Of a stretch of 64,000 bases of DNA, positions 1 to 29,914 are shown piece by piece. This DNA comes from Candidatus Bathyarchaeota archaeon (GTDB lineage: Archaea; Thermoproteota; Bathyarchaeia; Bathyarchaeales; Bathycorpusculaceae): positions 1,984,001-2,048,000 of the forward strand of contig OY970340.1 of the NCBI GenBank assembly GCA_963717465.1, given 5' to 3'. The notes under the pieces were generated by a model, which was not told where the DNA came from, did no database searches, and saw nothing but the letters and a program-made list of their open reading frames with translations. The position numbers and the translations under genes are program-made. Position 1 is the first letter of the stretch, and each line of letters opens with the position of its first letter.

Positions 1-2
1 GT

Positions 3-1166
3 CCGGCCCTCCTGAATATGCAATGCATCAAGGCTTTTTCTTCGCTCTGCCGCAGCAAATAACTCGCCGAAATAACTTGGTACTACAACTTTGCCCCATT
101 GCACTTGTTGCGCTGGCGGTTTCTGATTCTTTTCATCTAAACTTCCAACTGCGCCTTTGCCTGATGCCCTTTGTTTTGCTGTTGCCTTGTTGATGAAGTC
201 TTCAAGCTTCGCCATCATAGCGGCTGACTCAGCTTTAACCGCTTCTTTTGCGGCTTCTGACGCTGCCTTGATAGCTTCAGCTTTCGCCTCTGCCTCGCTC
301 TTGTTACATGCTTCAACCGTTTGTTTGCAGGCTTCTGCAATACTTTGTCTGCATGCTTCCGCAAGGTTCTTCGCATGCTGTTCAATCATTGCTTTAACTG
401 CGTCTGCATCGAAAAGATTTGTTTTGTTTCCTTCTGCGCTCATTATGTTTTTTTCTCCTTTTTGATTTTTTATTGGATTAGCTTCTCCAGCTGCAAAGCT
501 GTTGAAGCGTACCTGTGAATCACAGCCAAGGCAATCAAACGTTAAGGCACCAGCGCATTTCATGCAGGAATGTTTGCCTTTAGCGTTTAATGCCTTGCTG
601 ATTACAATTTGTTGAGCTGCAGTCATGGCCGCAGCGAACCCGACAGGCCTAAACCGTGTATGCTCATAAGCCCCCTTAGAAACAATACTTAACTCGACAA
701 GCTGAGGCTTACGCATGATTTCCCAGGCGCCCCGGCAAATATGAACAAGATTCATGTTCTCATCACGTGAGTGACAACCGCAGGCACTGCAGAAGGCCTC
801 ACCAACTACACGAGGGCTAACACTGTTAACATACTCTTTTTCAATTTTGTTAAGCAGTTCCTCGTCACCGCTTACCTCACCCTTGAAAGGCACTTCCATT
901 CGGCCGTCAGCTGCAACTTGGGGCATGCGAAGAAAATTGACTACCCCTTTGACGTCTTCTATTTTATCGCCGTGGTCGACGCGAATCTGTACGTTTTGTC
1001 CCATGGCCACAAAGTAAGGTAATTCTTCCTGGGGAACCTGCCACATGTTACGGTTAACAGTATCGTCGATTGCTATGCCTTCAATAATTAGGACCTTGCC
1101 GTCAGCACTACGCTTGAAGGTAACTGGCACATTATAATCCAGCAGAATATTGGATTTTGTACTCAT
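3..1166 (-). CDS. Prohead (maturation) protease fused to coiled-coil scaffold, 3'-partial
   Basis: Manually translated, absent from ORF track because no stop in window: MSTKSNILLDYNVPV...IEGIAIDDTVNRN...IRVDHGD...VNSVSPRV..FCSACG..HIC...LVELSIVSKGAY followed by an Ala/Glu/Lys-rich helical region; downstream of portal. Confidence 0.8.
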   Translation of the reverse strand, partial: MSTKSNILLDYNVPVTFKRSADGKVLIIEGIAIDDTVNRNMWQVPQEELPYFVAMGQNVQIRVDHGDKIEDVKGVVNFLRMPQVAADGRMEVPFKGEVSGDEELLNKIEKEYVNSVSPRVVGEAFCSACGCHSRDENMNLVHICRGAWEIMRKPQLVELSIVSKGAYEHTRFRPVGFAAAMTAAQQIVISKALNAKGKHSCMKCAGALTFDCLGCDSQVRFNSFAAGEANPIKNQKGEKNIMSAEGNKTNLFDADAVKAMIEQHAKNLAEACRQSIAEACKQTVEACNKSEAEAKAEAIKAASEAAKEAVKAESAAMMAKLEDFINKATAKQRASGKGAVGSLDEKNQKPPAQQVQWGKVVVPSYFGELFAAAERRKSLDALHIQEGR

Positions 1167-1242
1167 TGATTCTCACTTGTTTCTTGATTATGTTTCTGTT
1201 TTTTTATCTTCTTTCCACGATTGCCTTGTAAATTTGCCGTGT

Positions 1243-1567
1243 TTAAGGAGTACACTTTACAATGTCGCCGAGACTGCGCCAGATGGATAAATCCGCAGGC
1301 TCAAAGTCTCCGTTGCCAGCCTTATCTAGGCACCTGTGATATTTGACTCCGCGGAGTTGACAATCAATTTTAAGTGCTAAACAGGAAGCCCACCGTTTAC
1401 AATCATGCTCGCAAGCATATGGTCTAGGAGCGTTAAAGAAGGCCCCGAAACAAAGCGGGTCACCATCCCGATCTGTCACCTGAAGGTCAACACCTAAAAC
1501 AGGGTTTATTCTCTCTTTTCAGCTGAGCATCTTGATACTCTTCGAATGATTCGTCTGGTTGAGTCAT
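1243..1567 (-). CDS. Small Cys-rich viral protein (apparent +1 frameshift near 1502-1504)
   Basis: ATG at 1567 (MTQPDESFEEYQDAQLKRENK) joins the 1243..1479 frame (PVLGVDLQVTDRDGDPLCFG..CEHDCKRWASC) if one C of CCC is removed. Confidence 0.5.
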
Positions 1568-1655
1568 AATTTAAATCACTATTTTATCTGATTTGAGCAA
1601 CCATATACTTTCTGCCTTTAGATTCAAAATAGGCTCTGTTACCGACAGCTTCTTT

Positions 1656-3026
1656 CTAATCAGGAACAGCTTTAGTCATGGCTGAAGTAGGCATGTTAGC
1701 ATCAACCTGCTCTGTTAAAGTAACAAGATTACCCCAAACCTGCTCAGGCAAACCAAGCTTCGAACGCGCTTCCAAATCGCCTTCTAAACCTGCTTGGTAC
1801 AACCTAATTTGTTGGTCAAACATAACGTCGGCTGAGGGTTCCCAGATTGGTTTCCACTCAACTTTCGGAATCTTATCAGGCGTAATCAACGAACTTTGAA
1901 AGTCGCCTTGAAGAATAGCGGGGAACAATTCATTTTCAAAGGTATATTTGAGATGCTGCTGCCGCGTTCTTAACCTTGTAACAAATTCTTGCATAACCAT
2001 TTCGGCCGTGGCTCGATTTGTCGATTCACTTTGACCCAAGAATATTTTAGGTACGCCTAATTGAGCTTCACGCTGCTGCAAAAGATAAGTCAGCCACCAT
2101 TCAACCCGTAAACTGCGGGTCATGCTATCGATGGGCTGGATTTTTACATCATGTTTAACGGCTATGTCAGTGCCCTGGTCACGTGCACATATTTCGTTGA
2201 TGAAGTTTGCAAGTTTAGTGTTCGACCATTCTCCTGCGCCTGGGCTACCGCAGACAAAACTGAGAATGGGCTTAGTGTAAATCTTCATGATTAAGGCCAT
2301 GTCATGCTGAAAATCATCGATCAAACCCTGAATAAGCAAAGTGCTGCGTAACAGGCTTACGCCATAGGCGCTGTTGTAGCGTCCTGATCCTGGATTGTGA
2401 ATTGTCCGAATGATGTCCTGTGGTAAAAATATTGCTGGAGGCACTGATAAGAGCTGAATGTAACCAAACGTATTCATTAAAGCGTCTCGGCGAATGCGCA
2501 CGTACAAGGGATCCAAGGGCTTGAGCCATTCTACACGCTGATTGTCTTCATCCCTGCAAATTTCCGTGATGCTGAAACCGTTTATAAGCGCGTCTCTTTC
2601 TTGAATTCGCGCCACTGAAGGTATATCATGGGAAGCAAGCCACTCTGTTAAGTAACTGTTGAATGTTGTGTTTCCGCCTTTTAGCTCAAACCAGTTACTC
2701 ATCGTCAAGTTAACTCGGACGTCAATCGACGCTGCCACATACGGGTTAAACTCATAGAGCGACTGAAGTTTGGGCAAGTCATCAACTGGAGTAACACCCC
2801 AAATCCGATCATATAGGCTGCTATAGGGTGGGGTTACAAAACCGATTCCAGCGCTCTTCAAAGTGTACTTGTTCAAGTAGGCCTGCAGGATAACATCACG
2901 CGAGGTCCTGAAAGGAATTTCGTCATTTAACTGCTTAGTTGCAGTATCCGCATCGACATTTCTCGCCGGGTTTGGCATACTATCTGCTAGTTTAAGCGTA
3001 GCGGTATATTCTGATCGTGTTGGCAT
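1656..3026 (-). CDS. Phage portal protein
   Basis: 456 aa; NPYVAASIDVR, DALINGFSITEI, LKPLDP, YGVSLL, LGVPKIFLG, NRATAE motifs typical of portals; position after TerL. Confidence 0.9.
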   Translation of the reverse strand: MPTRSEYTATLKLADSMPNPARNVDADTATKQLNDEIPFRTSRDVILQAYLNKYTLKSAGIGFVTPPYSSLYDRIWGVTPVDDLPKLQSLYEFNPYVAASIDVRVNLTMSNWFELKGGNTTFNSYLTEWLASHDIPSVARIQERDALINGFSITEICRDEDNQRVEWLKPLDPLYVRIRRDALMNTFGYIQLLSVPPAIFLPQDIIRTIHNPGSGRYNSAYGVSLLRSTLLIQGLIDDFQHDMALIMKIYTKPILSFVCGSPGAGEWSNTKLANFINEICARDQGTDIAVKHDVKIQPIDSMTRSLRVEWWLTYLLQQREAQLGVPKIFLGQSESTNRATAEMVMQEFVTRLRTRQQHLKYTFENELFPAILQGDFQSSLITPDKIPKVEWKPIWEPSADVMFDQQIRLYQAGLEGDLEARSKLGLPEQVWGNLVTLTEQVDANMPTSAMTKAVPD

Positions 3027-3035
3027 TCAATCAAC

Positions 3036-3254
3036 TCATTGACTAGGTTGCTGGGATTCTGCAGCAGGCTTAGGAACGGATACTGTGATAAGTAAACTAT
3101 CAAGCACAATTGTTTTCATGAGGTCCTTGCCGGCGCCGTTGATGTAAATATGAATGTCTTTTGGCTGAGCCGCTACTTCTATGCCTAATGTCTTTACAAT
3201 CTTGGCCTTATCGTCAATACTGAAGATTTCTTTCTCGTTTTCAGGGGTATCCAT
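3036..3254 (-). CDS. Small hypothetical viral protein
   Basis: 72 aa ORF tightly packed between TerL and portal. Confidence 0.6.
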   Translation of the reverse strand: MDTPENEKEIFSIDDKAKIVKTLGIEVAAQPKDIHIYINGAGKDLMKTIVLDSLLITVSVPKPAAESQQPSQ

Positions 3255-4740
3255 AATATTTCACTTTAATGTTTTTTTGGGGAAATGCGATGCCTATACC
3301 TTCAGACGGCTTGTCGCCGCCAATCAAGTTACGAACCGCAATCTCAACCGAGTCCAAAGCGTCGTCGTGTGCTCCACGTGGGAATTCAACCCACTCCTGG
3401 AAGAACTCACCTTTTGCATTATGCACGACAGGGTTGAGCAGTATGCGTTTAGCTTCAAAATGACTGCTTAATGGGATTAATCGCTCCTCTTTTCCTGAAA
3501 CCGTTTGAGTTGGAACGATTGGCAGCTTGTTTAGTTCAGGAAGGAAAGTTAGGACCTTTTGGAAAGCGTTCGATTCGATGTAAATTTTACTGTAGCCATA
3601 AAGTAAATGCAACTGCTTAAGTTTTTCAAGCGCTACCGGGAAGGGCACTTTCTCAGCCCAAACATCATAAAGATAACCCTGATTCGCGTCACGGTCATAG
3701 ATGAATGTGCTGATAGCGAATAAGTCACCTTCACCCAATGCGGGATCCACACCGGCATATTTTGGCAAGTTATGTGCAGGCTCAAACGCTGCATCCTTTT
3801 CATTCCAGGGATGTAACCATTCAGACTTCAACAAATCACCTTCCATACTTGTAGGATCATTCTGGTACTGTGACAAGAAATAGACGCTGCCGATATCATC
3901 GCATTTCTTCTTTAAGCGTTCATAAGGCCAGACTTCAGGCCACAAGACTTTAGGAGATTCGCCTTTGCTTATGGCTTCGTAATTTTGAATTGCCTTGTAA
4001 ACTTTAAACGGCCAGCCTTTGCCACCTTTCTCAGGAGGAGTAATTAATTCGCTGTACAAGTCGGCATAGTGCCATCTTGTCCCGATGACTAGGCAGGCGC
4101 CCCAACTGAATAGTGTTGTTAATAGTACTTTGAAGAACCATCGGCTGCTCTTTTCTCTTTGACATTGTGTGTAGACGTTTTCCTCGTCAATTATGTCATC
4201 GGCGATGATTAAGTCAAAGCCGCCCCCTGTAAGTGAACCCATAATGCCGCAACCGCGTAATGTGGGGAACTTGCTAATCTCTTTTCTCTTGACAAAGAAT
4301 TCGGTGTCAGTCCATTTTTGAGGATTCTTGGGCTTCAAGTTCCCAAAGACGCTGATGTAATTCGGGTCGTTTTCGATGCGGTTTTTGATGGCTGCGACTG
4401 TTTGATTGGCTAACTCTGCGGTTTTACTTACGATTAAAATTCGGATTTCAGGGTAATTGCCGATGAGCCAGCTGGGGTAATTGATGCTTGTGCATTCACT
4501 TTTCGCGTGTTTGCGTGGGGCTTCGAGATGAAAATTTTTTAATGCTAAAGGATGCCCTGGCAAAGGACTAAAATGAGATGGGTCATTCATTGGCTCCAAA
4601 AGTCGGTACCATTCATCATGAAACCAAGCGGTATTATTATAACCAAGATAACGAGCAAAATATCGAAGTCTACGGCGTGCCAGCTGCTGTCTCTGCTCTT
4701 CTAAGAATCTCTTCTGCATGCAAGATTGCTTCGAATTCAT
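3241..4740 (-). CDS. terL: Terminase large subunit
   Basis: Walker A-like PRKHAKS, Walker B IIADD, IGTRWH, YQNDP, nuclease GVDPA and HDDALDS; start may be ATG 4719. Confidence 0.95.
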   Translation of the reverse strand: MNSKQSCMQKRFLEEQRQQLARRRLRYFARYLGYNNTAWFHDEWYRLLEPMNDPSHFSPLPGHPLALKNFHLEAPRKHAKSECTSINYPSWLIGNYPEIRILIVSKTAELANQTVAAIKNRIENDPNYISVFGNLKPKNPQKWTDTEFFVKRKEISKFPTLRGCGIMGSLTGGGFDLIIADDIIDEENVYTQCQREKSSRWFFKVLLTTLFSWGACLVIGTRWHYADLYSELITPPEKGGKGWPFKVYKAIQNYEAISKGESPKVLWPEVWPYERLKKKCDDIGSVYFLSQYQNDPTSMEGDLLKSEWLHPWNEKDAAFEPAHNLPKYAGVDPALGEGDLFAISTFIYDRDANQGYLYDVWAEKVPFPVALEKLKQLHLLYGYSKIYIESNAFQKVLTFLPELNKLPIVPTQTVSGKEERLIPLSSHFEAKRILLNPVVHNAKGEFFQEWVEFPRGAHDDALDSVEIAVRNLIGGDKPSEGIGIAFPQKNIKVKYYGYP

Positions 4741-5236
4741 CTTCAGACATCTTCGATAACAAATTATCGGTCTGTTGCTGAATCATAGTTTGCTGCTTAA
4801 CATTAACTTCAACGTTAACTTCGGATTTTTCAGGTTTAGGCTTCAAACAACTAATCATACTACCTCTGGCTCTAATCGCTGCCGCTAAAGCTTCCAAGTT
4901 CGGCGCTTTCCCATCCTGCAAAGCAAAACCGCGCAGCAAAGCAATGTCTCGAAATTGCACACGAATTAATTCATCAGTCAAAAAGACAACTTCGCCGCTG
5001 CGCAAATCACGAAACACTGTCATCCAACTTACAGAGTACCCTTTTTCAATCAAAAAGGTTCGAATTTCCTCAATTGTATCGCCACGAGCACGTCGCTCAA
5101 ATACAAGTTTGCGTCGAATTATCTGTTTTAAATTGACGGAAGAATATTCTGTTTCTTCTTCTTTGGTCTCTTCCTCTTCTGGTTCATTGTTTAAGATGAC
5201 TGTTGTTATTCCGTTAAAATCTAAAGGTGAATTCAA
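4670..5236 (-). CDS. Putative terminase small subunit
   Basis: HTH-like segment (GDTIEEIRTFL..GYSVSWMTVFRDL), beta-type tail EVNVEVNV, overlaps TerL start; GGAGG upstream. Confidence 0.7.
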   Translation of the reverse strand: MNSPLDFNGITTVILNNEPEEEETKEEETEYSSVNLKQIIRRKLVFERRARGDTIEEIRTFLIEKGYSVSWMTVFRDLRSGEVVFLTDELIRVQFRDIALLRGFALQDGKAPNLEALAAAIRARGSMISCLKPKPEKSEVNVEVNVKQQTMIQQQTDNLLSKMSEDEFEAILHAEEILRRAETAAGTP

Positions 5237-5298
5237 ATTTTAATAGCCTCCAAATTTTTTTATTTCAGCAGTTTAGCACAAAAATGCTTCTTGACATT

Positions 5299-5541
5299 TT
5301 AGCCTCCGCATGCCTTGACAATCAGGTAAGTTAATAGTCCTCCAGCGCCAGCGGAAATAATGGCTGTTGCAATTGGTTTGGTGAAGCGTACCCAAGATTT
5401 GTTTACTGCGTTGCAAGCCTCTAACGTTTCAAGGCGGCGGTAAATGTGAGGTAAATGATTATTAGTCAACTTATCAATCTGCACAGTAATGTAATCAAGC
5501 TTTGTCTCAATTGTTGCTAAACGCTCTGAGGGTGTAGGCAT
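5299..5541 (-). CDS. Small coiled-coil plus C-terminal TM protein (XhlA/holin-like)
   Basis: ERLATIETKLD...NNHLPHI...LE followed by one hydrophobic helix; likely ATG at 5541. Confidence 0.55.
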   Translation of the reverse strand: MPTPSERLATIETKLDYITVQIDKLTNNHLPHIYRRLETLEACNAVNKSWVRFTKPIATAIISAGAGGLLTYLIVKACGG

Positions 5542-5542
5542 A

Positions 5543-5794
5543 CTATTGAAAGGCTCCTTGTGCACGATTATCAGATAAAACTAGGCCTGTGGGGCAATCA
5601 GGAATATCCGCAAAATTTACGTTTTCAACGGATAATTTAATAAAGCGTTTTAGGTCTTCTGGAGTGCCTGTGAATATGCGTTCTTGAAGTTTAGGGTCAA
5701 ACTTGCTATTATGGAAACAGAATTGTCTTGATTTTCTAAATTCTATACTTTCATCTGATCTATGTCCACGATGAGTCAAAACAGACACTTCCAA
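5543..5794 (-). CDS. Hypothetical protein, first ORF of viral module
   Basis: 83 aa ORF whose stop abuts the next ATG. Confidence 0.45.
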   Translation of the reverse strand: MEVSVLTHRGHRSDESIEFRKSRQFCFHNSKFDPKLQERIFTGTPEDLKRFIKLSVENVNFADIPDCPTGLVLSDNRAQGAFQ

Positions 5795-5887
5795 AAAAGC
5801 TTAACGCTTGAAACCGCACACAATCCTCTTCTGGGTGAGGCAGGCGAGACTTTGCAAATAGCTGCTTTTACTTAACTATTCCGATTT

Positions 5888-5946
5888 ACTATTTAAGCAA
5901 TTGTAAAGATTCACTATTTAAGCAATTGTACATCTAAGCAATCGAG
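5888..5946 (-). promoter_or_regulatory. Tandem 18-bp direct repeat containing TATA-like element upstream of viral operon
   Basis: ACTATTTAAGCAATTGTA at 5888-5905 and 5913-5930, degenerate third copy ~5931-5946; reads CTTAAATAG on minus strand. Confidence 0.65.
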
Positions 5947-6110
5947 TTGCTTTAAGTTTCACAAAAAACTTTGACGTATGATTTTTTATGAACATTTTTG
6001 CAGTTATCTTGCGAATTCTTTGAATTTTTTTAATTTTTTTATTTGATCAGTTAATGAATATTTCTTAATTTAGTTAATGTTCAAGTTAACCCATTACAAA
6101 TGTGACGGGT

Positions 6111-6908
6111 TTACTGTCTAATTCCCAATATCTTTCGCCGATGGATCAAGATTCTTGCGAGATGGACAGCTACGTAAGCGCCTGATAAAGTCAGTAGTAA
6201 GAAGAACACTATTCTCTGCGAGTAATCAAATGAGGATGTGAAGACGTAGATTCCGTAGAAACCTGCTGCTTCAAGGAATATGAATCTCAAACCGAAGCCT
6301 GCAGTACTGGATAGCATGAATTCAGTAAAACTATTCTTGAGAGTTCCAGCGGCCAATGAAACAACTGTATAAAAGAATGGTATGAATGTGGATATGAAAA
6401 CTGAGAATTTGCCGTGTTCAACTAACCATTCATCTGCATTCTCAAGGCTTTTTTCAGATATGCGGAAAAAAGACAAAGCCTTCAACAGTAACGGTCTTGC
6501 TGCAAACCTGCCACAAACATACTCCACCGGTACAACGGCACCAACTAAGCACACTAGAAAAGTGTAATACGGATTGAACACTCCAATTGCTGACAGGTAG
6601 CCGCACGCTGGAACAAGAAAATAATCGGGAACTGGCGAAAAAACAATGCTCAGAAACATGCCTAGGTAACCTGAAAGCAAAAGCAACGATGATACAGCTT
6701 CCGGATCAGAACCGTAAGGTGAGACGTTGATTAAATGAAAATACCCATTAATCAAAGCCAAAACACTCACCAACATTATGAGAATCGAAACTGCGGAAAG
6801 GTAGTGCCAGTACTTGTGAAGCCCAAGTATTTCCTTTTTCAAAACTCGATAAGGCTTTTCCAAATCAGATATAAGTCTATTCTCTGAAACCTTCTCCCTC
6901 TTATCCAT
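6111..6908 (-). CDS. DedA/VTT family membrane protein
   Basis: SPVPDYFLVPACGYL, ADEWLVEHG..SVFISTFIP..SLAAG motifs. Confidence 0.85.
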   Translation of the reverse strand: MDKREKVSENRLISDLEKPYRVLKKEILGLHKYWHYLSAVSILIMLVSVLALINGYFHLINVSPYGSDPEAVSSLLLLSGYLGMFLSIVFSPVPDYFLVPACGYLSAIGVFNPYYTFLVCLVGAVVPVEYVCGRFAARPLLLKALSFFRISEKSLENADEWLVEHGKFSVFISTFIPFFYTVVSLAAGTLKNSFTEFMLSSTAGFGLRFIFLEAAGFYGIYVFTSSFDYSQRIVFFLLLTLSGAYVAVHLARILIHRRKILGIRQ

Positions 6909-7224: not shown

Positions 7225-7623
7225 TTGATCTTTGCCGATTTGCTTGTAACATTAGTCGGACTGATAATTCTCTGGATACTCGTTTCAATACCCGTTTGGC
7301 TTGCTGCGAAAGCTACTACGGGTGGCAGAGCGTCTTTTGGGGAAGCCATGCTCGCAACGCTTGTTGGACCGGTAATTTACGTCATTGTCAACTATCTCGT
7401 CAATTACTTCCTGGGTGCTGTGATAGGGGCAGGTGCTCTAGCTTTTGGCTACATTTTAGCACTTCTTGCTTGGATCTGGGTTTTCAAGGCTAGCTTTCGA
7501 ACGGGTTGGATTAGGGCAATTCTAATAGCAATCCTTGCGTGGGTTATCTTCATTATCTTAAGCATAATACTTGGAGTGCTCTTTGGGATAACTTATCCAG
7601 CGCCATTCTTCCCAAAAATTTAA
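7225..7623 (+). CDS. Hypothetical 4-TM membrane protein
   Basis: 132 aa hydrophobic ORF. Confidence 0.75.
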   Translation: MIFADLLVTLVGLIILWILVSIPVWLAAKATTGGRASFGEAMLATLVGPVIYVIVNYLVNYFLGAVIGAGALAFGYILALLAWIWVFKASFRTGWIRAILIAILAWVIFIILSIILGVLFGITYPAPFFPKI

Positions 7624-7780: not shown

Positions 7781-7814
7781 TGAGTAAATTTTTTTCTTGC
7801 AACGATTGATAAAC

Positions 7815-8324
7815 ATGAAAGAACTAAAACCAATCGACTATAAACTTTTGTATGAATTAATGAAAAACTCGCATAGAAGTGATAGGCAATTAGCTAAAGT
7901 TTTAGGGATATCTCAGCCTACTGTAACTCGAAGAAGAGCAATGCTTGAAGAAAATTTTATCGAAGGATACACGGTCATACCAAAATTTTTTGAAATTGGT
8001 TTCGAAATTGTTGCTTTGACATGTTTTAAAACTGTTGTAAAAGATCAAAAAGGACAGACAAAAGAAGAATCAATAAAGAAACTAAAAGAATGGTTCACGA
8101 AACAAAATAATGTGGTCATGGTCACTGAAGGACTTGGGATGGGCTGGAATTCAGCGTGCTTCTCATACCATGAGAACTACACCAGCTTCACAGACTTCAA
8201 AAGAAAGCTTGAATCAGAACTATCCGATTGGGTACTGGAAAGCCAAACCTTTATCATAAACCTTAGAACTGACACAGTGTTCAAGTCATTACACTTGAAA
8301 TACCTAACCTTTCAGAAAAAGTAA
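7815..8324 (+). CDS. Lrp/AsnC family transcriptional regulator
   Basis: IDYKLLYELMKNSHRSDRQLAKVLGISQPTVTRRR wHTH plus C-terminal RAM-like domain. Confidence 0.9.
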   Translation: MKELKPIDYKLLYELMKNSHRSDRQLAKVLGISQPTVTRRRAMLEENFIEGYTVIPKFFEIGFEIVALTCFKTVVKDQKGQTKEESIKKLKEWFTKQNNVVMVTEGLGMGWNSACFSYHENYTSFTDFKRKLESELSDWVLESQTFIINLRTDTVFKSLHLKYLTFQKK

Positions 8325-10517: not shown

Positions 10518-11687
10518 ATGAAATTGAAAGGTTTGCCGCTTAATCTTGATACGTATGAAACAAATGAAGTACTTACGAGCAAGCATTTTCGAGAATTTAG
10601 GATGCCTGACTTTGAGTGGATCTACCTTCCAGAGAGCATGAGGCCGTTCGCAGGCGCTAGCCCTTTGGGCGTGAAGGAGTTTATTGCTGATGACAATAGA
10701 GGTGCCGTTTCCACTTTGCCTTCTTTAAAAATAGACGGCTCTGACTTTTACCTCTCTGTTAAAGGCGTTGGGTCCACGACTAATCCGTTTTCTCATCAGC
10801 TTTTGGACAAATCTGAAATTTGTAACTTATTGAGAGATTCAAGATTGAATGAGAAAATATTGAATTCCCCTGATTGTGCTCAGCGATACATTACAGGTGA
10901 ATTATGGTTAAGAGGTTCGCCGTATGGTGGGCAGGGACTCCAGCATGCAACTACTTCTTTGAGAGTATCCGAAATGGCCAACCTTACCTCCATTCACGGA
11001 TTTAGAATTGCACCCCTTGTGAAAATAGTTTTTCTTCCCCAAGACCTTGAACGTGAAATTAAGAAGATTTTTTGGTACCGCAGGTTCGCTGGGAGAATGG
11101 TTCAGGAAATAAGACTTGTGCCATCTAATGTAAGAATCTATTTTCACTCGGGAAGCACTGTCGGCAGTAACATTCATTCACTTTTTGAAATCTTTGGAGT
11201 AGACAGTAATGATAAAGCGTTGGAGTTTATGAAGAATTTTGTCAAGAGTGGTATTGCATTCCTAACTTTGTTTGTGAGATCGATAAAAAGTAATGTTGAT
11301 GGAACGTTCAGCGGGCTGGATTTTTATGATGTTTGGCTGGATAAAGATGCGGTTCTATCGCCTGATGGAAATATTTTCTTTGTGGACCTTGAAGGCTTGG
11401 AGTGGATAACTGTTTGTGAAAAAGATGTTCAGGAAAAGATAGAGGATCAGATATATCGTTCGCTTTACGAGTTCATGTATGCTTACGAGCAGATAGAACA
11501 TGAACGTTCCACAAGGTTTGGAGAAATGATGGATAGGAAAGCGCAGTTTGAATACATTCTCAGAGAAGCCTTGAGTAATGATGAAGTTGTTGATGTTGTG
11601 CGTGATCGACAAAGTCTGCAACTAATCATCGGTAATATTCTAGAAGAGCAAACTTTAACTAAGAAATTCCCAATGATTGACTGGTGA
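10518..11687 (+). CDS. Uncharacterised protein with SelO-like/protein-kinase-like motifs
   Basis: DDNRG, LSVKGVGST, RLVPSNVRI and DVWLDKD..DG..FFVDLE line up by eye with SelO DGRA, LKGxGxT, RxAPSxxRF and TDN..DYG motifs. Confidence 0.6.
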   Translation: MKLKGLPLNLDTYETNEVLTSKHFREFRMPDFEWIYLPESMRPFAGASPLGVKEFIADDNRGAVSTLPSLKIDGSDFYLSVKGVGSTTNPFSHQLLDKSEICNLLRDSRLNEKILNSPDCAQRYITGELWLRGSPYGGQGLQHATTSLRVSEMANLTSIHGFRIAPLVKIVFLPQDLEREIKKIFWYRRFAGRMVQEIRLVPSNVRIYFHSGSTVGSNIHSLFEIFGVDSNDKALEFMKNFVKSGIAFLTLFVRSIKSNVDGTFSGLDFYDVWLDKDAVLSPDGNIFFVDLEGLEWITVCEKDVQEKIEDQIYRSLYEFMYAYEQIEHERSTRFGEMMDRKAQFEYILREALSNDEVVDVVRDRQSLQLIIGNILEEQTLTKKFPMIDW

Positions 11688-13246
11688 TTCAAATGCAGTG
11701 CAATGACGTAAGACTGTTCTTCTCTCAAATAACCGCAAAGTCCATTTCAATGCAAATATCACAAGCCGACATGGATTTTCTCAGTAACGGTGGCTACGTT
11801 TCAGTGATGAAAAAAGAAGACTATGATCAGGCGTTGACCGAAGTTTCAAATCTAAACAAATTGAATCTGGACCAACAAAATGAATTGAATTATGAGCGAG
11901 GCGAAGAGTCAACTCTTAGACAAGAAGAGAAGAAAGTTCATTCAATAATGTTTCATTTTGAGAACAAAGAGAAGAAGGAAGCCGAACTTGAAACTTACCA
12001 AAATGAAGAGAACCTTGTCTCCAAAGTAGAGACAGAAGTAGCTAGCAGAGATTCAAAAATAAAAGCTCTTATCCAGAAAAAATCAATTGTTGACAGAATG
12101 GTTCCTTATAACGGGGAATACCTGTCCCTTACTGGCCTTGGGGTAATAACCCTAAACGACCTTAACATTAGGAATTACAGGGTTTCAACTAGCCAGTTCT
12201 CCGACTTCATTGAAGAGAGAACGACAACTTTTGGCGAATTGCGATCCATAGCCGAAAGAGGCAGCTTTTACACTTCTAGGCTTGTTGCAGAATTGCCAGA
12301 TGCTGATCCATCTCAACTCTGGAGCGTTTCAATAGGATTAGGAAAGCTTCAAGGAGACCCAAATCAAATCATTCAAAAATTCTCTCTCGCAATGAATAGC
12401 TTGCAGCATTTCAATTCCACCCTTGAAAACAAAATGATGGCGGCCGAAATTATGACTTCCTCAAAGACAGATTTCTCTCAACCTAACAGTTCTGCCCTGC
12501 AGAGTTTATCAGAATCCTTGTCAAATCTTGACCGCGAAATTAGACACGACGCCAAAGTTCCCAAGCAATTATCAGCAGGCATTGCAGCCACTATCCTGTT
12601 TGGAAGAAGATTTGACGGCACTTTCCCCACTGACAACTTCCTAAAATTTTCCAAAATAACCTCTTCGTATGAATCGGCAGCAATATTAGCTATAATGAAC
12701 ACGCCTTTTGACCAACTGGCAGGCAAATTCCAATCTTTCAGATCACTATTTGGTTCTTGGGGTTATGAAGTGTCAGAGGACACTGAACTAGCCTCTGCAT
12801 ATTTATCAATTTCCGATTTAGGACCAGAAGACGTGAAGACGAAGTTAACTATAATTATCGATTCACTCAAGAATTATCTTGAATATCCCCTTGTGGCTTC
12901 AGCGATTCTTGGATCAATAGCGACTTTTGAAGCTAATGAAGCTCTTGACCTGCTACACAAAGCGTACACGACAATTGGGTCCTTCGCCCAAGACTTAAGT
13001 CCTTCTGAACTGCTAAGCCTTTCAGTCAGGATGATTCACGGAATCAAGAATGAACTAGTAAAACAGCTGGATTCAACCGCAAAGATAGTGAACACTCCAG
13101 TGCAATTCACATACGCACCATCAGGCATATTCTTCATATATTATGCACCCCTGATTATCGCACACTCATCTTACTATTCAACATTCAGCGGAGTCGGAGG
13201 CTACCACCCCGCACATGTTCATGGTGTGGGAGGGTTTATGGGATGA
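11684..13246 (+). CDS. Uncharacterised helical protein, N-terminal coiled coil, Gly/His-rich C-terminus (possibly DUF4003-like)
   Basis: 520 aa; 4-nt overlaps with both neighbours. Confidence 0.7.
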   Translation: MIQMQCNDVRLFFSQITAKSISMQISQADMDFLSNGGYVSVMKKEDYDQALTEVSNLNKLNLDQQNELNYERGEESTLRQEEKKVHSIMFHFENKEKKEAELETYQNEENLVSKVETEVASRDSKIKALIQKKSIVDRMVPYNGEYLSLTGLGVITLNDLNIRNYRVSTSQFSDFIEERTTTFGELRSIAERGSFYTSRLVAELPDADPSQLWSVSIGLGKLQGDPNQIIQKFSLAMNSLQHFNSTLENKMMAAEIMTSSKTDFSQPNSSALQSLSESLSNLDREIRHDAKVPKQLSAGIAATILFGRRFDGTFPTDNFLKFSKITSSYESAAILAIMNTPFDQLAGKFQSFRSLFGSWGYEVSEDTELASAYLSISDLGPEDVKTKLTIIIDSLKNYLEYPLVASAILGSIATFEANEALDLLHKAYTTIGSFAQDLSPSELLSLSVRMIHGIKNELVKQLDSTAKIVNTPVQFTYAPSGIFFIYYAPLIIAHSSYYSTFSGVGGYHPAHVHGVGGFMG

Positions 13247-14316
13247 ACTCAAAAAAATATCTTGTCGTCGCCATCTTTCTAATGTTCTCCCTTTTCCTAT
13301 TCTCTTCTACTTTTCCAGCTCACTCTACACCGACCTATGTTCCACAACCGGGAGATTACTTCTTTTACCACGAAGTCATAAGCATTGCGAATGGCACCGG
13401 TAATTATGTTGGATATATCGAACAGGACATCTATGATGGAAATGAAACGATAAACGGAGTAAGCCAAGATGGAATTGTATCTGCAAGCTACGGGTACACA
13501 CTTACTTGGAGTAACAGTGAAAATGAGATAGGCAATAATAGCGAGTCTGGAAACTTTACTTTCTCATCAGCAGACTTTCTTTACGTTAATGGAACTGATG
13601 ATCAAACTGGATATGTTAATCCAACTGTCTGGTTCTGGATAGATAACTCAATTCCAGTAGACGGCAACTTTACCCTTCTGAACACTGAGATGACAGTTCA
13701 ATCTACAAATTACAGCTACTTCAACGAACAGCAGCTTAGAAGCGTAAACGCGACTTATGCTCAAGGAAGCTCAAGTTACCAACGAAACGATGAATATGGA
13801 CAATTCACCGCATCCTACACCTGGAACGCTTACTTCGACCCATCAACAGGATACATAATTGGATATGACTATGTCGAGCACGATACTAACCAATCAGGAG
13901 ACGGGTTCACTTACACCGACCACCTAGATGTACTTTCAACTAGCTACCCTTTGACAACTGTGGCAACTATCACGCCCAACAGTACAAGTAGTACCGCTGA
14001 AGTATCATCTGTGGACTTAATATCATATGTAGGAATCTTTGCGGCAATATTAGTGTTAATTATTGTAATCGTAGTGGTTGTTGTAATCATTTATGCATCT
14101 ACGAGAAAACGAAAACCCCTTCCACAGCATTCCTACCAACAATACCAAAGACCACCGCCTCCGCCGCCACCGGATATTGATTTAACTCCAAAGCAGCAAC
14201 CGCCAGTACAGCAGATCGTTATCAAAGAGGTCGTAAAGGTGAAATGTCGCTACTGCGGAGCACTCATAGACTCCACCGCTGAAACCTGCCCAATTTGCGG
14301 AGCACCCAGAACTTAG
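13243..14316 (+). CDS. Single-pass surface protein with cytoplasmic poly-Pro and Zn ribbon
   Basis: Signal peptide, many N-x-S/T sequons, TM helix, PPPPPPP, CRYCG..CPICG. Confidence 0.85.
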   Translation: MNSKKYLVVAIFLMFSLFLFSSTFPAHSTPTYVPQPGDYFFYHEVISIANGTGNYVGYIEQDIYDGNETINGVSQDGIVSASYGYTLTWSNSENEIGNNSESGNFTFSSADFLYVNGTDDQTGYVNPTVWFWIDNSIPVDGNFTLLNTEMTVQSTNYSYFNEQQLRSVNATYAQGSSSYQRNDEYGQFTASYTWNAYFDPSTGYIIGYDYVEHDTNQSGDGFTYTDHLDVLSTSYPLTTVATITPNSTSSTAEVSSVDLISYVGIFAAILVLIIVIVVVVVIIYASTRKRKPLPQHSYQQYQRPPPPPPPDIDLTPKQQPPVQQIVIKEVVKVKCRYCGALIDSTAETCPICGAPRT

Positions 14317-28786: not shown

Positions 28787-29914
28787 TTATTCTCGCTTTT
28801 GTTTACTCGCATTTTGAATTAGAGTTATCCACTTGTTTTTTCCTTCTATGGTTATTCCGCATGCTTCGCTTGGAGTTTTGCCTTCTAATGCTTCATGGGG
28901 TCTTATGTAGTTGTGGAATATTTGGTAGCCTTGAAGGATTGCTGTGTCGTTTGTTTTTAATCCTCTCATGGTTTTTTCTCTATCTCGGATTTCACCGTTC
29001 ATTCTTTCCATTTTGTTATTGTTTCTATCGCCCCTAAGTTGAATGTGAGCAATATGCTCGGTTCTCGTCTCTTTCAAGTATGTCCAATATTCTTTTAGGT
29101 ATGCATCGCGGTAAGCGGGTAAACCATCAGTTATGAACGTCATTGGTTTTTTGCCCATAAGCTCTTTAGACATTCGCAATAGGTTTCTTGCATCATGCTT
29201 ATCTTTTGTTTCTGCGACTTCTTGCGCTATTCAAAACCTTGTCTCATCATCCATCATTGAGAACAAATATTTCATGTTACCTTTAACTTTGAGGTAAATT
29301 TCGTCTGCTCTCCATGTATCGCTTACGTTTGGCACTATTTTTTCTGTGTAGTTTTTCATTAGGGCTATGTACTTTTTAATCCAGTTATAGATTGTTTGAT
29401 GCGAAATCTCAACACCTAACAACTGTAAAGATTCCATTGTATTCCGTAATGATTCACCACTAAAGTAAAGTTGCATGGCACTAGTGATTGCTTGAGGATT
29501 ATGCTTCATTCGTTCAAAACCTATGTTGAAAGTAAAGTCTTTGTGGCAATTTTTGCAGTTGAATACTTGGATATTTCCAGCTTTGTTTTTTCTTATGCCA
29601 TGTTTAACTATGTTTGGTGAACCGCAATAGATGCAATTTGAAAGGTTTTCTATTGGAGTAATTGTTCTGACTTTTACTTCTGCTCTCATTGTTAATGAGA
29701 ACTTTACCGCATGAATGTGTTTGCATTCTACATGTCGGTATGTGTTGTCGGGGCATTGGCAAATCCATTCATCGTCTATTTTGGTTACTGCGTACTCTCC
29801 GTTTCCTGATTGTGATTTGACTTTATAGAAGCATTCGTCAACTCTTTGTATTTGGTTTTGGAGTTTTGCGATTGCTTCTCCGCGTTCTTCTCTTGTGGTT
29901 GTTAGTTGTGCCAT
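28787..29914 (-). pseudogene. IS6-family DDE transposase with SWIM and Zn-ribbon N-terminus, internal TGA at 29231-29233
   Basis: WICQCPD..CKHIHAV, CIYCGS..CKNC, WRADE, ETRF*IAQEV in one frame, ITDG, NNKMERMNG. Confidence 0.9.

Follow-up and report, generated by a model that had tools for sequence, protein, structure and literature searches.

What is a block of virus head and packaging genes doing directly beside ordinary host genes in a Bathyarchaeia chromosome: is it an integrated virus, complete or truncated, or has the host turned it into a gene transfer agent (GTA)-like cluster? The stretch examined here, referred to as the window, comprises 64,000 nucleotides (nt) from a Candidatus Bathyarchaeota archaeon (contig OY970340.1 of assembly GCA_963717465.1). 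It covers positions 1984001-2048000 of a genome assembled as a single contig of 3,053,889 bp, and a window coordinate is the genome coordinate minus 1984000. A previous sequence-only reading had placed terminase, portal and protease genes at the left edge of the window and had proposed either a provirus with its attachment (att) site just upstream of the late operon, or a domesticated GTA-like cluster. We consider the element to be an early-region-less and probably defective provirus of a head-tailed archaeal virus, a reading to which we assign a probability of about 60%.

The scan of open reading frames (ORFs) across the window edge showed an unbroken run of minus-strand genes from genome position 1989794 (window 5794) down to 1971867, about 18 kb in length, at which gene junctions are very short or overlapping. 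Window 1-5794 (minus strand) holds the 5′ third only, while 12.1 kb of the virion-gene run lie to the left of the window. The cluster has a GC content of 42.8%, compared with 40.1% for the genome, which places it in the top 1.3% of 18 kb windows. The hallmark set of a virus is present, namely the large terminase subunit (TerL), portal, HK97 capsid protein and maturation protease (Table 1). TerL and portal were each recovered by a viral profile where the sequence-only reading had put them. The TerL translation holds the motifs APRKHAKS, LIIADD and GVDPA / ESN / HDD, which we take to be a deviant Walker A of the APRKHAKS type, a Walker B and acidic motifs of the nuclease type, respectively. On the left side, which that reading had left to be annotated, an HK97 capsid gene and fibre- or adhesin-like genes were found, but no integrase, replication module or att repeat.

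The evidence for truncation comes from the relatives. Searches with TerL retrieved 62 IMG/VR loci (30-76% identity), 80 metagenome loci kept of 93, and 11 loci in GTDB species genomes, 9 of which are in Bathyarchaeota/Bathyarchaeia and 2 in Planctomycetota (32-33%), while none of the deposited phages exceeded 29% identity. All nine relatives with upstream sequence (L022, L023, L024, L028, L102, L104, G016:C8, G020:C15 and G057:C58) carry 5-8 kb of early genes before their homologues of c83 and c88, the two small ORFs that open the operon. This early region encodes a conserved protein of 350-362 amino acids (aa), a 184-aa protein, a ParB-like protein, an ATP-binding cassette (ABC)-type ATPase and a GNAT acetyltransferase, in addition to winged-helix proteins, assorted morons and an HTH_45 gene just before the small terminase subunit (TerS) gene. 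The ParB assignment is based on Table S4 of Duan et al. and on a Pfam ParB_N match in L190. For the 350-aa early protein, a search of PDB sequences yielded nothing at E up to 1, and its atlas score was only 0.78.

In the element examined here, the operon starts directly at host-type genes, so the boundary without early genes described by the sequence-only reading was upheld. No homologue of the 350-aa early protein was found in the genome, and neither a second virus-like region nor a displaced early region was detected in it when 1087 ORFs from 63 related viral loci were searched. Judging from these comparisons, the missing conserved early block is a stronger argument for truncation than the missing integrase.

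ORFs flanking the cluster were scanned over about 7 kb on the left and 28 kb on the right. Neither these nor the ORFs of the cluster include a recognisable gene for integration, replication or lysogeny control, although orphan genes could hide such functions. No tRNA gene was identified in the 64-kb window, nor in 60 kb of sequence on its left side. Tyrosine recombinases (PF00589) were absent within 100 kb, the genome matches being located at 0.91, 1.64, 2.10 (below the cut-off) and 2.40 Mb, and the whole genome has no serine recombinase (PF00239). The genome searches thus agreed with the earlier statement that no integrase, replication gene, tRNA or att site is visible at this end. As for an att site just upstream of the late operon, no direct repeat of at least 13 nt joins the ends: the longest one that genome 1966000-1972600 and 1989200-1992000 share exactly has 12 nt and lies far from the element ends, in a search that covered exact direct and inverted repeats and that short or imperfect att sites would escape. 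Repeat scans of each region revealed only short chance-like families besides the promoter duplication described below. A k-mer scan found no CRISPR array in the genome, the sole candidate being 4 repeats over 173 nt at 2237765. Contigs of one peat-metagenome run (5% of sampled words) bridged no junction and were uninformative on excision or expression; they cover diverged pieces of the capsid and portal genes and a few short near-identical pieces.

A lone trio of early-type genes was observed elsewhere in the genome (2326057-2327786; L084:10057-11786). It encodes a ParB-like protein (207 aa), an ABC-type ATPase (226 aa) and a GNAT protein (145 aa), which match the early modules found in 9 loci of related viruses at 53-70% identity, and its neighbours are housekeeping genes for TFB, SUI1 and a methyltransferase. 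The trio may have been left behind by another provirus, or it may be a mobile module exchanged between viruses and hosts.

Several observations weigh against a truncated provirus. All ORFs of the 18 kb operon are uninterrupted and equal those of the relatives in length, whereas a long-dead remnant would show decay. The close relatives G057:C58, L023 and L104 likewise have no recognisable integrase or replicase, so the absence of these genes may be a trait of the lineage, and a missing integrase alone is no proof of truncation; a tyrosine integrase is present in L025 (60% TerL identity), while integrases on the contigs of other relatives are at least 79 kb away and none is on G057:C58. The flanking genes are themselves accessory, as DedA was found in 3 of 40 congeners (G019, G047 and G053) and a homologue of the GDT1 transporter in none of the 40 at E<=1e-30. 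The DedA loci of G019, G047 and G053 had none of this genome's left-flank genes on the corresponding side, and since no empty site was found in any relative, the element boundaries are drawn from gene content alone. Moreover, the comparison with host divergence given below was made with one host marker, the housekeeping gene IdsA.

The first two of these observations also favour a complete and functional small provirus or chronic virus, whose entire genome would be these 18 kb, possibly with neighbouring accessory genes (DedA, for instance), and which would integrate and replicate through host enzymes or through unrecognised small or orphan proteins. The intact ORFs are tightly packed behind their own promoter, and many orphan genes are explained by no library; for 18 orphan proteins, even Pfam matches at E up to 5 amounted to no more than noise. 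We find this explanation unlikely, though deserving of serious attention. Against it stand the conserved early genes that all nine relatives carry and the element lacks, as well as the failure to find terminal direct repeats. Furthermore, the operon has no recognisable gene for a tail tube, a sheath or a tape-measure protein, whereas the group with the closest capsid protein has gp10-like, 490-aa and 1312-aa genes.

Both flanks of the presumed truncated provirus are of host type. On the right, the DedA and Lrp genes named by the sequence-only reading were found, with a membrane protein gene between them (Table 1), and none of the three has a homologue in the fetched viral loci; farther right are ordinary cellular genes for an oxidoreductase, an RNase J-like protein, a PQQ-repeat protein and IdsA. 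On the left, the plus strand encodes a 94-aa membrane protein, a CBS-pair protein and the GDT1 transporter.

A misjoin inside a provirus during assembly would also set a late operon beside host genes, and the region does seem hard to assemble: four long contigs of related metagenome-assembled genomes (MAGs), G016:C8, G058:C28, G059:C3 and G059:C9, stop within the homologous provirus or shortly after it, as if multiple copies or variants break assemblies. Such an artefact is nevertheless highly improbable in our view, as both ends of the element adjoin ordinary intergenic sequence and the genome has a single copy of it, with no repeat to misjoin across by the search with the 1087 viral ORFs.

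Some of the related loci are themselves disrupted. In L014/L015 (G016:C8) and L085 (G058:C28), the TerL, portal and capsid genes are each broken up over several frames, and TerL is partly duplicated. The adjoining ATP-citrate lyase genes are also split, so that sequencing error and real decay are indistinguishable there.

The GTA-like option of the sequence-only reading, or equally a PBSX-like cluster, would mean that the host retains nothing but the late operon, that it expresses this operon under its own control and that the particles package host DNA. It would account for a structural operon with its own promoter, with all genes intact and with no early, integration or replication genes, and TerL has diverged from that of the relatives (about 71%) to much the same extent as one host marker (about 73%). 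The distribution of TerL speaks for a different history. Among the sampled genomes, some of which are incomplete, TerL was detected in 2 of 24 congeners, in 1 of 200 genomes of the family (53% identity) and in none of 16 genomes from eleven other families of the order. The carriers have it at other loci and with early genes, so the conserved locus considered earlier was not found; ATP-citrate lyase genes adjoin it in G016 and radical-SAM and surface-protein genes in G057, while G020 and G059 have two copies each. This patchy presence is what that reading had itself named as the mark of an ordinary provirus. On the other hand, its proposal of a virus-derived module in a Bathyarchaeia host held, given the nine Bathyarchaeota/Bathyarchaeia records with TerL loci and an IdsA that is 71-75% identical to that of three Bathyarchaeota MAGs with such loci, which supports a Bathyarchaeia-type host.

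The identities of TerL and of IdsA, the single host marker used, were then set side by side. The TerL proteins of four host genomes (G020, G057, G059 and L023) share 95-97% identity with one another, far above the 82-88% of IdsA among five host MAGs (G016, G020, G057, G058 and G059), whereas both TerL and IdsA of the present genome are about 70-75% identical to those of these hosts. Recent spread among those hosts would fit better than co-divergence, although the comparison is only indicative. Comparison of dN/dS with the nearest relatives was hampered by saturated synonymous sites (proportion of synonymous differences, pS, 0.75-0.85; non-synonymous, pN, 0.07 for the major capsid protein) and would support only long-term purifying selection, with no discrimination between a virus and a domesticated cluster.

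The ancestry of the genes points the same way. The virus group nearest in TerL shows about 69-76% identity, while a search with the alignment of the c389 protease led to a second group of viruses (L184-L197). Of its 14 loci, 13 have a capsid protein with 86-91% identity to that of the element (the 14th ends before the gene), and the corresponding values are 70-80% for the portal, with 75-80% in L184-L195, 52-62% for the protease-scaffold and 38-48% for c149. The TerL of the second group is of the unrelated Terminase_6N/6C type, with one weak 86-residue match to the TerL studied here. Its loci have ParB_N, ABC ATPase and GNAT genes directly before the terminase and a long-tail module with a gp10-like, a 490-aa and a 1312-aa protein, to which nothing in the element corresponds. 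Yet other viral loci gave the best matches for c291, c202, c277, c893 and full-length c332. By these identities the element is evidently a mosaic, with head module and terminase nearest to two different virus groups, and such shuffling of modules is what circulating viruses would be expected to do.

The recombinant make-up, together with the GC content atypical for the genome and the retention of a TerS candidate with a helix-turn-helix (HTH)-like N-terminus, argues against a GTA-like cluster, which we thus consider improbable. The same low credence applies to the idea that the host keeps the stripped, promoter-equipped late operon for useful particles, as a young GTA-like or PBSX-like system. 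To our knowledge, it would be the first such system in Bathyarchaeia, and if it were true, the conserved leader hairpin described below, which the parental viruses have as well, could be its point of expression control.

The repeated promoter-like motif that had been noticed upstream of the operon was found as two tandem copies of 23 nt, 96% alike and 25 nt apart. Each copy has, on the coding strand, the TATA-box-like octamer CTTAAATA. With up to 2 mismatches allowed, the 18-nt core of the motif has no further occurrence in the 3.05 Mb genome, and the motif aligns with the TATA-like TTTTATAA region upstream of the same gene in relatives. It is probably the late promoter, duplicated in this element, and transcription from it would be directed into the operon. 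A leader block of 44 nt, located between this motif and the first ORF, has a 24-nt core that is present with 2 mismatches in 7 related loci and only once in the genome. The leader is nearly invariant while the adjoining protein is only 36-39% identical. A hairpin of 15 pairs was predicted in it with no informative covariation, as the leader barely varies and so allows no covariation test. Perhaps the block serves as a regulatory RNA or as a protein-binding site of the late operon.

We consider the following history of a truncated provirus the most likely one. A temperate or chronically carried virus of this lineage would have integrated into a Bathyarchaeia chromosome, and its early region, rather than never having been present, would later have been lost by deletion or rearrangement. 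What was left would be an intact late operon, presumably unable to replicate or excise alone, with minus-strand transcription starting at the duplicated TATA-like promoter and passing through the conserved leader.

As to the individual genes, the ORF assigned to TerS by the sequence-only reading is present, while its identity as the small terminase subunit is only probable, on account of its position and weak homology. It showed no protein-family match (Pfam, PHROG or NCBIfam), and its neighbours in a protein language model are viral proteins of 200-226 aa, a lead only. The two small ORFs reported before it, c83 and c88, are present and conserved in related viruses, at 36-53% identity for c83 and 57% for c88, and c88 is weakly holin/XhlA-like (phrog_689 holin, E 4.4e-4; phrog_937, E 8e-4). 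In the left part of the operon, c150, c156, c197 and c695 have homologues in the same order in G057:C58 (28-43% identity). No match to c695 was found in 50,697 phage records, and its only 3 homologues are all unannotated.

The protease-scaffold c389 gave no Pfam, PHROG or NCBIfam match, with no Peptidase_S78-type match even at Pfam E up to 5, and its profile searches against PDB sequences returned coiled-coil noise only. A search of 5.8 billion proteins yielded 115 unannotated homologues. The last codon and the stop are just left of the window, and the ORF is complete in the genome. An AlphaFold model from an alignment of 8 sequences was unusable (predicted local distance difference test, pLDDT, 42), and a 42-sequence alignment was used instead, which gave residues ~25-175 at pLDDT 83-98, followed by a helix at 254-331. 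Foldseek comparison of the N-terminal domain with the PDB revealed 12 matches at E<=0.001. Herpesvirus assemblins were among the proteins matched, with the herpes simplex virus 2 (HSV-2) protease at E 9.6e-5, and T4 gp21 was matched at E 4.5e-3 with a template-modelling (TM) score of 0.54 normalised to the target. Against BFVD, 221 matches at E<=0.001 were found, several named prohead protease. Candidate catalytic residues are S117 and H142, which do not vary across the 42 sequences, and H65, conserved in at least 90% of them, but H142 could belong to a metal site, discussed next, instead of to catalysis. The modelled fold thus supports the protease-scaffold assignment made from sequence, c389 being most likely a protease for capsid maturation with an assemblin/HK97-type fold, to which a long scaffold-like helix is joined.

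In the same alignment, C126, C129, H142 and C144 of c389 (residues 126-144, window ~735-791, minus strand) were observed to be invariant in the 42 homologues, and may form a zinc-binding insert in the capsid protease. We know of no prior description of such an insert, although no search aimed at one was made.

Homologues of three of these proteins in the provirus PLTA01000035, which is discussed at the end, were given HHpred matches in Table S4 of Duan et al. (PMC10848311): that of the capsid protein to the HK97 capsid protein (99.82%), that of c197 to SPP1 gp7 (93.85%), and that of c389 weakly to the T5 prohead protease (74%).

Table 1. Features of the element and of its right flank, listed in the direction of the operon and then beyond its start
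Feature	Position	Strand	Basis or remark
Two tandem 23-nt motif copies (probable late promoter)	window 5883-5905, 5908-5930	-	
Leader block, 44 nt	window 5809-5852	-	alignment with relatives
c83, 83 aa, first gene of the operon	window 5543-5794	-	same-position homologues in 9 relatives' loci, 25-53% identity
c88, 88 aa, C-terminal hydrophobic segment	window 5299-5565	-	same-position homologues upstream of TerS in 5 loci, 52-58% identity
Probable TerS, 188 aa	window 4670-5236	-	overlaps TerL; weakly homologous to its counterpart in relatives
TerL, 499 aa	window 3241-4740	-	phrog_38, E 4.5e-100; no Pfam match
c72, small ORF between TerL and portal	window 3036-3254	-	homologues in 9 loci
Portal, 456 aa	window 1656-3026	-	phrog_9232, E 1e-18; no Pfam match
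c78, Cys-rich, 78 aa	window 1243-1479	-	no homologue found
c389, protease-scaffold, 389 aa	window 1-1166; whole gene genome 1983997-1985166	-	fold match
c149, Gly/Ala-rich, decoration-like, 149 aa	genome 1983548-1983997	-	
HK97-type major capsid protein, 299 aa	genome 1982563-1983462	-	PF25209, 5e-5; phrog_1650, 1.6e-4
c277, repeat protein	genome 1981604-1982437	-	
c291, zinc ribbon and lectin-like domain	genome 1980727-1981602	-	
c893, beta-helix protein, 893 aa, signal-like and anchor-like ends	genome 1978045-1980726	-	Beta_helix, 3.8e-5
c332	genome 1977043-1978041	-	
c150	genome 1976578-1977030	-	homologue in G057:C58
c156	genome 1976090-1976560	-	homologue in G057:C58
c197, homologue SPP1 gp7-like	genome 1975533-1976126	-	homologue in G057:C58
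c202, weakly tail-fibre-like	genome 1974899-1975507	-	phrog_5417, 1.5e-7
c695	genome 1972797-1974884	-	homologue in G057:C58
c133	genome 1972363-1972764	-	
c148	genome 1971867-1972313	-	
DedA/VTT membrane protein	window 6111-6908	-	host-type, outside the element
Membrane protein, 132 aa	window 7225-7623	+	host-type, outside the element
AsnC/Lrp-type HTH regulator	window 7797-8324	+	host-type, outside the element

Other observations concern DNA outside the element. Three consecutive plus-strand genes at window 10518-14316 (389, 520 and 357 aa) have no credible Pfam or NCBIfam match, the only NCBIfam match being sub-threshold (18.7 bits against a cut-off of 166.65 bits), and no homologue in any fetched viral locus. 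Two adjoining ORFs on the minus strand at window 28787-29914 resemble fragments of IS6-, IS1- and IS481-type transposases, and are probably a broken insertion sequence. Outside the window, an MttB-family methyltransferase is present as two overlapping ORFs of 198 and 302 aa (genome 2321035-2322529; L084:5035-6529), which could reflect a frameshift, a sequencing error or recoding.

Bathyarchaeia are abundant archaea of sediments and peat that have seldom been cultured, and knowledge of their viruses comes almost entirely from metagenomes. With a provirus-derived element and its two junctions contained in a closed chromosome, the genome offers a clean reference for a poorly described lineage, one which swaps head and packaging modules between virus groups, whose members generally have no recognisable integrase, and in which a late-operon-only form exists. 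A tempting but unsupported GTA call is removed, and what is left is otherwise an ordinary case of a probably defective provirus.

GTAs such as RcGTA of Rhodobacter and VTA of Methanococcus voltae are clusters of structural genes that lack genes for integration or replication. The element is like them in consisting of structural genes only, among host genes and with no recognised gene of either kind. Within a host clade, GTAs are conserved and pass down by vertical inheritance; unlike them, the element is not conserved across its host clade.

Among characterised viruses, Fuxiviridae and Kunpengviridae are described as HK97-type Caudoviricetes of Bathyarchaeia, with Kunpengvirus being temperate; they carry a tail tube or baseplate and Cas4, and Kunpengvirus also an integrase, MCM and PolB (Duan et al., PMC10541130). 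The element has no recognisable tail tube or baseplate, Cas4, integrase, MCM or PolB, and is set apart from both families as far as that description goes. A set of head-tailed proviruses from archaea, 38 in number, is treated in PMC11705971. The head module closest to that of the element belongs to the uncultured virus group L185-L197 (for example IMGVR_UViG_3300035696_002996), which differs in its unrelated TerL, in the ParB_N, ABC and GNAT genes upstream and in its long-tail module.

A close published counterpart is PLTA01000035 (our locus L090), a Baizomonadales provirus of 19,996 bp that is listed as unclassified Caudoviricetes and placed in cluster VC_251_0, which also includes PLSP01000042 and PLSP01000153 (Duan et al. 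2024, ISME Commun, Table S3, PMC10848311). The comparison with VC_251_0 was by gene order and protein identity. PLTA01000035 has an early block of ParB-like, ABC, GNAT and winged-HTH genes, and HTH_45 before TerS, which the element lacks, whereas the element has an insertion of c277, c291 and c893 and a much more distant head module. Both come from the same host class, Bathyarchaeia, and neither has a recognisable integrase. Their late genes follow a common order, which starts with c83/c88-like genes, TerS, TerL, a small ORF, portal and protease, and continues with a decoration-like gene, HK97 capsid, a c332-like gene, c150, c156, c197 and c695. Identities are 71% for TerL, 53% for the portal and 43% for the capsid protein (28-71% for the proteins overall), and the 24-nt core of the leader is common to both with 2 mismatches. 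Placed beside this provirus, the element is a new, mosaic member of the head-tailed proviruses of Bathyarchaeia, and not a decayed one.

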